Of a DNA stretch of 64,000 bases, positions 17,601 to 20,600 are shown piece after piece. The stretch is from Tubiluchus corallicola (Eukaryota > Animalia > Priapulida): assembly GCA_030141605.1 (NCBI GenBank), contig JAQGDQ010000480.1:1-64000 (forward strand). The letters run 5' to 3'. The notes below the pieces were generated by a model. It was not told the origin of the DNA, made no database searches, and saw only the letters and a list, made by a program, of their open reading frames with translations. The stretch's first letter is position 1. Each line of letters opens with the position of its first letter. Made by a program: the position numbers and the translations under genes.

Positions 17601-20600
17601 CTGTGAATAACATTGAAATCGAAATATTCTTACTTTGTTTCCCACCATTTTTCATTGTATTCAGAAGGTGAATACTTTCCTTCAAATATGTTCCATCTGT
17701 ATTCGTCCATTAGGTAGCCAAATGGTAGAAAAGTCAACTTGGACAGCGCCACCAACATCAGAAAATTAGTGTCTGCCTCTGAAAGGACACAGAAATGCAG
17801 ATAATGAATTTAATTGGAAAAATATAGAGGGCAGCAGCTATCACTAACAGTTAACACAATTTACAAAATTATTCAATTGCACATAAAGCTGAGTTAAGCA
17901 TATTACAAAGTACTTTACAGATCACATAGTAGTTGGAGCACTTTTTTCTTTACGTATCATTCATTTCTCAGATAGCACGATAGCGTCCATATTTATAGTG
18001 TTTCAACCACTTTGCATTACCTGCTAGAAAAATTAAATAAAGTTAATATCTTTGTTTAAATTTAAAGATTACATACACCGTTTTTTAGAAGTTTGTAATT
18101 GATGTAATTTTAGTTTTAAATTTTCTAAATGTAAAATACTAACCCTAGACGTAAACAAATAAAGCAAACAAACCATATCCAACACCTGTTGGCTAACAAA
18201 AAGCTTTAGCAACATTATTAGCATTGTATGAAAACGCAGTATGAGGCACACAAAACACATAGCACTTGCGACAGGTCTGATCTAACTCAGTGGGTGGCAA
18301 TGGGTCCAATCATCTTTGCAACTTTGTCAGAAGAATCATGAGGGTCTCAACGAGCACAGCAAGTGTTTATTTGACAAAGCTTGATGTTTCTTTCTACTGT
18401 TTTGTTGTGTTGCTTGTGCAGAAGCAAAAAAACTGTGATGAAATAGCAGCAGTTTTGCAATTACAAGTTTGTTCAAGATAAAGCAAATGCAATGACGATC
18501 AATGTTTCTTAGCAGTAGCTGGATAATAGGATTACCGTTAAATATATATGCGAACTACCTCCGTACAATATAGTAATTTTAAGATCAATTTTTGATCCAG
18601 CAGTCTAAATAATTGTTTTTTGCATCACGAATAGATATGATCACAGTTTGGGATCATTCTGTCTCATCCTGTTTGAGAAGCCTCAGGGATATTTTTTTCA
18701 GGAAAAAAGAGAGATTAGTCTTTATTGGGTTTTAAGGATCATAGCTTGTACTTATAAAGGTAACAATTTCGCCGGAAAGAAGGTACACGCCACCACACAC
18801 ATAACATGGTTTACTAAAGCACTGGACACAGCAGGCTAGTGATGCTTCTGTCTGACCAGGAGTATCCTCCAGCTCCAGTAAAAGCCCGATCTGATGCAAA
18901 TGCGTGGGCGTTTCTACGGAGAGAGACATTAAGTCGCCAATGGCCTCATGAAAACCCGGATTAGCTCCACGTCTGAATTTGACAGGTTGATTTTTATACT
19001 GGAGGTAGTACTCGACGTGGCCCATTTCATGATGTGTAGTGGACAGCCACTTCATGGTGATGTCTGTACACTGTTTGATTCTAAACATGCGCAAAAATGG
19101 ATAACTGACCATATAGTTAAACAAAGACACATAAAAAATAAATATTTTATTGATCGTGAACAGGTGTCGGGACTTTTTAAACAATTTCATTCGGTTAAAA
19201 AGGAAAGGTTTTTGAAAGATGTAAGGAGGGTTTTTCATTGTCCTTCTTCAAAAGGTCGATCTTCAGTTTCAATCAATTTGTTCAACCAAATGTAAGAAAT
19301 GTACTTCCGTATGGTCCAACTGATGCACCTAGTATCCTGTATGGATGAATACTAACGAACCTATCCACCATGTATATTGATATTTTGCTAAGAAACTGTG
19401 TAGTAGATCAACAAAATATTCTATGGAGTGAGACAACAAAACAAAGTTTGATCTTAGAATAAATTATTATAGAATCAAACAACGTGCCTAGCCTAAACAT
19501 CAACATGAAGGCAATTTACAATGAAAATAATGTGAATAACATGTAAGACAGGAAGGTTTATTGTTTAGACAACAAATCTGCTAGTGTTTACTATTGACAA
19601 GATTTTTTAATCTGCGGTTTATATACAGCTCAGAAAGATTAATATCGTTACAAATATATCACAGAGGGAAAAAATATGTTTCATAGCCCAAGAATTTATA
19701 TCAGAGCTTTCACTCGGCTGGTTACCACTTGGTATCACTACTACCAACTCTTTAATACTGCAATACTAGATTATACGTGTTCTTAACGCGTATTCTTAAT
19801 ACGTTTCCTGAGCAGGAAACCTCGCACTTTTTCATTCATAGTTAGTTCATTGCTGCCTTCCCAAATAGTAATGTATTAACCATAAAAATTCGTTAAAATC
19901 AGTAACCTGCCAGCCTATTAAAGGCTAACAATAACACAAATTTTACCACAGCGACATGAAGTTCTCACATTCATAGGCGTTCCAATCAGCTGCGACACAA
20001 TGAATTTATATTGCCATATGTAACATTGATAAACAAATTTTCTAGCAGACAAACTCTACTGCCACAAGTGCCACTTGCAATTGCGAAAAATGGCCGAAGT
20101 ATACCCGGACTCTCTTCAAGTTCTAAAAGTAGGCCAATGTCGTGGAGATGAGCAGGTGTTTCAACGGACAGTGACATGAGGTCACCAATGGCTTCGTGGA
20201 AGCCAGGGTTTGCCCCATCTCGGAATCGCACAGGTTGGTTTTTGTATTGCAGAAAGTATTCAACATGTCCCATCTCGTGGTGGGTGGTAGACAACCATTT
20301 CATGTTGATGTCTGTGCACTGTTTGATTCTGAATAACGTAAATAGTTGATAACAACTCTTTTTTATAAAACCGTTAATGCAATGGCCTTCATTATCGTGA
20401 TTATTGTGGCGTTCTTCATTAGTATTGCACTGCACTAGCCTCCTTTTCTCAGTGAGAATATCCCCCTTGCAACACGACAAAATTGCCACAATGTTGTCAC
20501 AATATTTTTTGCAAATATTGGGACAATATTGGCTTGCCACAACATTGTACCAATATTTTTGACAATATTTTTTCCATATTGTGACATTGTTGTGATAATA

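Follow-up and report, generated by a model that had tools for sequence, protein, structure and literature searches.

Does the second domain of a worm ACE carry two alternative catalytic exons, and would a choice between them change the enzyme? The question is raised by the window, the whole 64,000-nucleotide stretch of Tubiluchus corallicola DNA that was analysed, which contains a two-domain ACE (peptidase M2) gene. Domain 2 has two intact tandem zinc-binding exons, here called A and B, which, with a probability of about two in three, are spliced one at a time and whose isoforms are predicted to differ in the S2 pocket. We demonstrate below how the pair is laid out, that the frames are open, that both copies have long been constrained, and how their residues map onto human ACE; judging from the sequence, one domain likely switches specificity through splicing.

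The gene model was built by tblastn with ACE homologs, and the splice sites were set by hand (Table 1). Each transcript has 28 exons and encodes a protein of 1249 aa with either exon A or exon B, and each frame is open. Hydrophobic stretches are found at both ends of the protein, as an N-terminal leader and at the C-terminal end, and the two domains are identical at 371 of 583 residues. A HEXXH motif and a downstream Glu form the zinc site in A, B and domain 1, and the site aligns to human ACE. No duplication of further exons was found in the ACE gene, save a short copy of the donor region of the upstream exon, which was the sole tblastn match under E 0.5 outside the known exons. This copy is located 182 nt downstream, is identical in the 14 intron bases past the donor, and is a possible decoy donor or 28-nt micro-exon. 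The palindrome in the intron before A, with a contig depth of up to 4181 versus about 170, is probably a small mobile element. Elsewhere in the window we noted what are presumably gag-pol-like frames of an LTR retrotransposon (1690-6658, plus strand; two reading frames, recognised from motifs), exon pieces that we take to be of a neuropeptide-type GPCR placed divergently from ACE (48781-55312, plus strand) and, between these pieces, a presumed reverse-transcriptase-like frame (51119-52366, minus strand).

Table 1. Features of the ACE gene in the window, with positions, strand and supporting evidence.
Feature	Position	Strand	Evidence or remark
Two-domain ACE (peptidase M2) gene	11582..44557	-	tblastn mapping; internal sites all AG/GT; both models open
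Single downstream exon, 145 nt	17634..17778	-	Spliced in X6
Interval missing in deletion allele, 438 nt replaced by 4 letters	18586..19023	.	Joint of 18585 to 19024 in X1 and X3
Zinc-binding exon copy B, 224 nt; Thr8/Tyr25/Arg37	18857..19080	-	B absent from the listed RNA pieces
Zinc-binding exon copy A, 224 nt; Asn8/Phe25/Asp37	20105..20328	-	A-type end joined to downstream exon in X6
Palindromic repeated element, intron before A	20469..20750	.	Self-complementary, 84% over 292 nt
Degenerate duplicate of upstream exon's 3' end and donor	21140..21185	-	Matches 21321-21369 at 84% over 49 nt
Single upstream exon, 173 nt	21335..21507	-	22016 and 21506 adjacent in an X6 contig
Domain 1 counterpart, single copy, split into 125 nt (33667-33543) and 99 nt (32361-32263)	32263..33667	-	

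The original prediction described two 224-nt exons, each with an AG acceptor and a GT donor, phase 2 in and phase 1 out, no stops, and HEMGH with a downstream Glu, and all of these properties were confirmed. The predicted eight differences in about 74 residues were found as well (N8T, F25Y, R34K, D37R, A59T, D63Q, E72D and S73T). The copies differ at 62 of 224 nt, with 10, 5 and 47 differences at the first, second and third codon positions, in agreement with the claimed excess at third positions; the flanking introns, said to be unalignable, scored no better than shuffles over 300 nt (P 0.88 upstream and 0.99 downstream). Between the copies pS was 0.975 and pN 0.078 (Nei-Gojobori), with saturated silent sites, which corresponds to the dN/dS far below 1 that had been expected. 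When A was mutated at 62 random sites under a neutral model, a mean of 37 residues changed and a stop arose in 85% of trials, and none of 100,000 trials gave eight or fewer residue changes. The pS and pN values and the neutral simulation support the claim of an old duplication with purifying selection on both copies. This conservation points to past constraint on both A and B, as distinct from present use.

A and B are tandem homologous exons of equal length and equal phase with valid splice sites, and the frame shift claimed for transcripts with both copies or neither was borne out: inclusion of both leads to a stop 8 codons into B, and omission of both to a stop 4 codons into the next exon. 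Because either arrangement meets an early stop, both-copy and no-copy transcripts would be removed by nonsense-mediated decay. The splice-site scores are near equal for A and B (donors 5.6 and 5.8, acceptors 6.7 and 6.9), and the two donors fall in the lower third of 26 other donors. Most likely, A and B would compete through splice sites that are much alike, the donors being rather weak. At 1024 nt the A-B intron is too long for steric exclusion, and for docking-site/selector pairing all six simple helix tests, which were run without conservation data, were not above shuffles (P 0.10-0.90).

To place the pair in independent assemblies, six runs (X1 to X6) were compared with the window, all as contigs and not as raw reads. 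X1, X2 and X4 came from the same sample, X2 and X4 at low depth; X3 came from another study, and X6 was a guessed RNA run. An X1 contig matches 19024-20318 without a single difference, and contigs of X2 extend over 18731-19607 and 19604-20508; these contigs link A and B with 0-1 differences and at even depth. Since the X1 and X2 contigs join both copies, a stitched assembly was ruled out and the copies are truly in tandem, as the claim that they are not an assembly artefact had it. The same runs do hold further ACE-like exons (those with Arg were found in X3 and X5), which is what a tandem stitched from two haplotypes or paralogs could draw on, but the linking contigs, a 28% nucleotide difference far beyond allelic levels and the unrelated flanks largely refute this explanation, and we regard it as very improbable. 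The X5 pieces were rejected as the window locus and read as paralogs.

The contigs also revealed that X1 carries a heterozygous 438-nt deletion, with a depth of 72 at the deletion joint, 89 on the intact piece and about 171 in the flanks. Lost through the deletion are 167 nt at the 3' end of B, the B donor and 271 nt of intronic sequence. The joint was present in X3 at a depth of 11.6 together with the intact form, and X2 and X4, both of low depth, list the intact form only. B's acceptor is left on the deletion allele, where its use would hit a stop after about 35 codons. The existence of this allele indicates that having B in a single copy is at least tolerated. A second deletion polymorphism was seen in X1 and X2 in the intron above the upstream exon, where 56 nt are skipped with 4 letters between (21660-21717).

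In X6, contig cover is missing over most of A and B, a gap to which we give no weight. Against the window, the exon pieces of X6 show 24 differing bases in 390 (the exons being 93-96% alike), so X6 stems from a diverged lineage. In one X6 contig, 38 letters of an upstream exon run straight into the downstream exon; in the 30 letters shown, 6 differ from the end of A and 12 from the end of B, as counted by eye. As 6 of 30 is above the background divergence, the assignment of this junction as A-type, skipping B if B is present there, is good, though short of exact. Among the pieces listed from X6, in which most of B lies outside the cover, none with B was found. The contig is unbroken across the junction at a depth of 46, which hints, through an inference about the assembler, that the B form is minor or absent in the X6 lineage. 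A second X6 contig on the first 96 nt of B was rejected as B, with 19 differences in 101 and a different upstream exon, and was read as a paralog.

Of the junctions that had been expected, one of A-type was seen, in the diverged X6 lineage, and no B junction was seen among the listed pieces. Mutually exclusive splicing, as originally predicted, agrees with the anatomy, the frame logic and the constraint; the A-type junction as the only one, and an allele that removes B, weigh on the other side. These last two points are what one would see if B had long been a functional alternative exon and was recently released, with A now constitutive and the deletion allele the first visible step of B's loss. 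This is the main rival to mutually exclusive splicing, and we consider it unlikely, giving it roughly one third the weight of the reading we favour. The deletion allele occurs in two runs of two studies, and B has the fewest codons in common with the other two copies; yet the intact B is free of stops and indels, keeps all zinc ligands and has splice sites that score like those of A, a single heterozygous allele does not prove lost constraint, and X3 may come from the animal that gave X1. Under mutually exclusive splicing, A would be the commoner form and B would be spliced in to give a Tyr/Arg domain 2.

The residue differences were then placed on human ACE, a mapping that rests on sequence alignment. 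Exon residue 1 corresponds to human residue 345, so that residue 25 corresponds to Y369 of the N-domain and F391 of the C-domain, and residue 37 to R381 and E403. At these positions A has Phe/Asp and B has Tyr/Arg, and residue 8 runs in parallel, with Asn in A as in the C-domain and Thr in B as in the N-domain; at residues 8, 25 and 37, A therefore matches the human C-domain and B the human N-domain. According to the available portions of two reports, the S2 pair Y369/F391 and R381/E403 underlies the N-domain selectivity of RXP407, an effect that concerns synthetic inhibitors as opposed to worm peptides (PMC2975193, PMC11880972). The earlier wording that splicing 'swaps the catalytic core' holds insofar as the zinc-site exon is exchanged, but the ligands and the catalytic Glu stay the same, and the A/B swap is predicted to alter the S2 pocket instead. 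The A and B isoforms would differ in specificity through this pocket. On the prime side, domain 2 retains human K489, H491 and Y498, which bind the substrate C-terminus. A Glu is found in domain 2 at the position of human Q259/Q281 (22112-22017, minus strand), and the preceding NMW motif is altered; Q259 is an S2' residue in the part of PMC2975193 that was available. With this Glu and the altered motif, domain 2 may handle substrate C-termini differently, whether A or B is used.

Tandem pairs were also sought in other animals. Among 381 proteins fetched, 10 had two close zinc motifs and 5 were kept as diverged whole-exon pairs; P0124, P0258, P0263, P0269 and P0290 were excluded, their repeats being near-identical or partial. 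At positions 25 and 37, Timema douglasi P0070 and its probable orthologue P0205 have F/E then Y/R, and P0384 is a third pair of this type; P0260 has F/G then Y/R, P0261 F/D then Y/S, and P0125 T/T then Y/R. P0260 and P0261 were found with P0205 as the query, a choice that biases the outcome towards that order. In the protein-level pairs the copies end at the intron between GANP and G (the 125-nt type), four of them with spacers of about 34-43 nt as deduced from protein alone, whereas the window copies are 224 nt long and 1024 nt apart. Private residues common to both copies within each pair suggest separate origins.

At the DNA level, 78 loci from the best 80 of 211 stretches were examined, of which 39 were exon pieces. 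L004 was the only one of these 78 with a tandem pair: its two 224-nt copies lie 63 nt apart, 39 of their 46 differences fall at third positions, and five residues differ, including Tyr/Phe in the reverse order, with Gly37 in both. The order at this locus contradicts a rule that would place the Phe copy first in every case. The other invertebrate tandem HEMGH-exon pairs thus differ at residue 25 as here, and at residue 37 in all but L004. Three of four two-motif loci were rejected as tandem pairs because they were two-domain sequences, and no sister-species locus was present among the 78. Tandem zinc-exon pairs appear to be recurrent but uncommon across animals. Two ENA zinc-exon frames, P0150 and P0186, each with a longest contig of 9442, have Tyr/Arg and Phe/Asn and could belong either to two domains or to one more tandem pair. 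In Mercenaria, the ACE isoforms X1 and X2 (P0002 and P0249, both 1823 aa) differ only at residues 1101-1138, by an 18-residue block in another exon, which is a different candidate alternative exon.

Both exons could be used singly and the isoforms still be near-equivalent, the Phe/Asp and Tyr/Arg match being ordinary toggling of variable positions. The family is indeed variable here, with a heterozygosity of 0.52 at position 25 and 0.84 at position 37; the 49 named invertebrate motifs show many state pairs (F/D 8, Y/R 4, Y/D 4, Y/E 4), and the Arg-bearing exons of X3 and X5 add to them. Given this variability, the chance that four differences in residues 1-41 include both 25 and 37 is about 3.5%, a figure computed post hoc. 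However, a basic residue 37 accompanies Tyr25 in 65 of 66 motifs (of 377, a vertebrate-heavy and non-independent set), both positions change in all five diverged protein-level pairs, and Asp to Arg takes two base changes, so we consider near-equivalence improbable. Of the two-motif hits, which are mostly vertebrate, 105 of 106 combine Phe with an acid in domain 2, and 104 of 105 carry Tyr in domain 1.

The zinc-binding segment of domain 1 in the window has Thr8/Phe25/Asp37. Since domain 1 is fixed at Phe/Asp, the A protein would have two Phe/Asp pockets, and the B protein would be mixed, like vertebrate somatic ACE in reverse order. Six residues are common to A and B against domain 1, and when the three are compared, B alone differs at residues 25 and 37 and at no others. 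Two introns of domain 1 are absent from domain 2 (33542-32362 and 36935-36628); the one between GANP and G is implied too by frames of insects and other invertebrates. The split exon of domain 1 was rejected as a fused A/B pair, as its intron holds no remnants (P 0.25-1.0).

Codons match between A and domain 1 only in 21 cases, between B and domain 1 only in 10, and between A and B only in 7. At silent sites A differs from domain 1 in 27 of 58 codons, where 35 are expected at saturation (P 0.016, one of several tests). This closeness could mean that A was converted long ago, and the Phe/Asp of A could have been taken from domain 1 in this way. The codons also form a mosaic (20328-20105 versus 33667-32263): 5 of the first 6 codons of A are matched by B only, and the 21 codons in which A equals domain 1 alone lie further along, on both sides of the domain 1 intron. 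This pattern, too, may come from old gene conversion.

The closest named relative is a partial ACE-like protein of Priapulus caudatus (P0264), which matches domain 1 at 72% over a stretch of 275 aa and reaches 64% where the linker between the domains is spanned, versus 49% or less for others; its domain 1 is Phe/Asp, and the record stops before the domain-2 zinc site. This kinship by itself would make a priapulid the probable source of the gene. Another close relative, P0132, has a 224-type exon with Tyr/Arg. In a quick tree search the domain duplication groups with Priapulus and not with vertebrates (support 99); a placement near Antedon and vertebrates in a quick first tree (support 80) was dropped once Priapulus was added.

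The original prediction knew of no such exons in ACE, and searches of the literature, outside subscription journals and supplements, likewise turned up no account of alternative zinc-site exons in this enzyme. ACE is absent from the main text of PMC8373072, and an Ance-3 exon duplication from the available part of PMC10484059; the idea of a duplicated exon in Anopheles AnoACE7 or Drosophila Ance-3 found no support. What is new here is that A and B differ at the S2 positions on which the selectivity of inhibitors for the N- or the C-domain depends. The S2 pair drives how domain-selective inhibitors are designed, and the reason for two catalytic domains in ACE is called unexplained in the part of PMC1325048 that was available. 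If both isoforms are made, two natural forms of a 1249-aa protein that are the same except at eight residues would show cleanly what the S2 pair does to natural substrates. The deletion allele would supply a natural loss-of-isoform genotype. Recurrence across phyla would speak for two pocket types that serve a long-standing functional need, as opposed to an accident of vertebrate history. Tentatively, and with slightly less than an even chance, the S2 dichotomy (Tyr/Arg versus Phe/acid) may be a recurrent two-state switch, written repeatedly either into a pair of domains (vertebrates, Lamellibrachia, Daphnia) or into mutually exclusive zinc exons (this worm, insects, others), and polymorphic here, with a Tyr/Arg null allele segregating.

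The gene resembles known systems in several respects. Human somatic ACE has two domains and a HEMGH/Glu zinc site in its N- and C-domains (PDB 7q3y, 3nxq, 1o86), as here, and exons 7-9 of mouse ACE3 are 173, 224 and 145 nt, equal to the worm exons around the zinc site, in the portion of PMC1925091 that was available. Mutually exclusive homologous exons of equal length, with variable residues at a ligand or catalytic site, are described for PKM and for Drosophila CRMP and CG42249 in the accessible part of PMC7954323, whose main text, to that extent, does not contain the word 'peptidase'. Compared with these, the ACE pair keeps its catalytic residues and alters a subsite, and both copies are predicted to be used. 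The mammalian ACE isoforms come from two promoters, as stated in the part of PMC1325048 available. In mammals the two pocket states reside in separate domains, whereas in the worm they reside in tandem exons of one domain.
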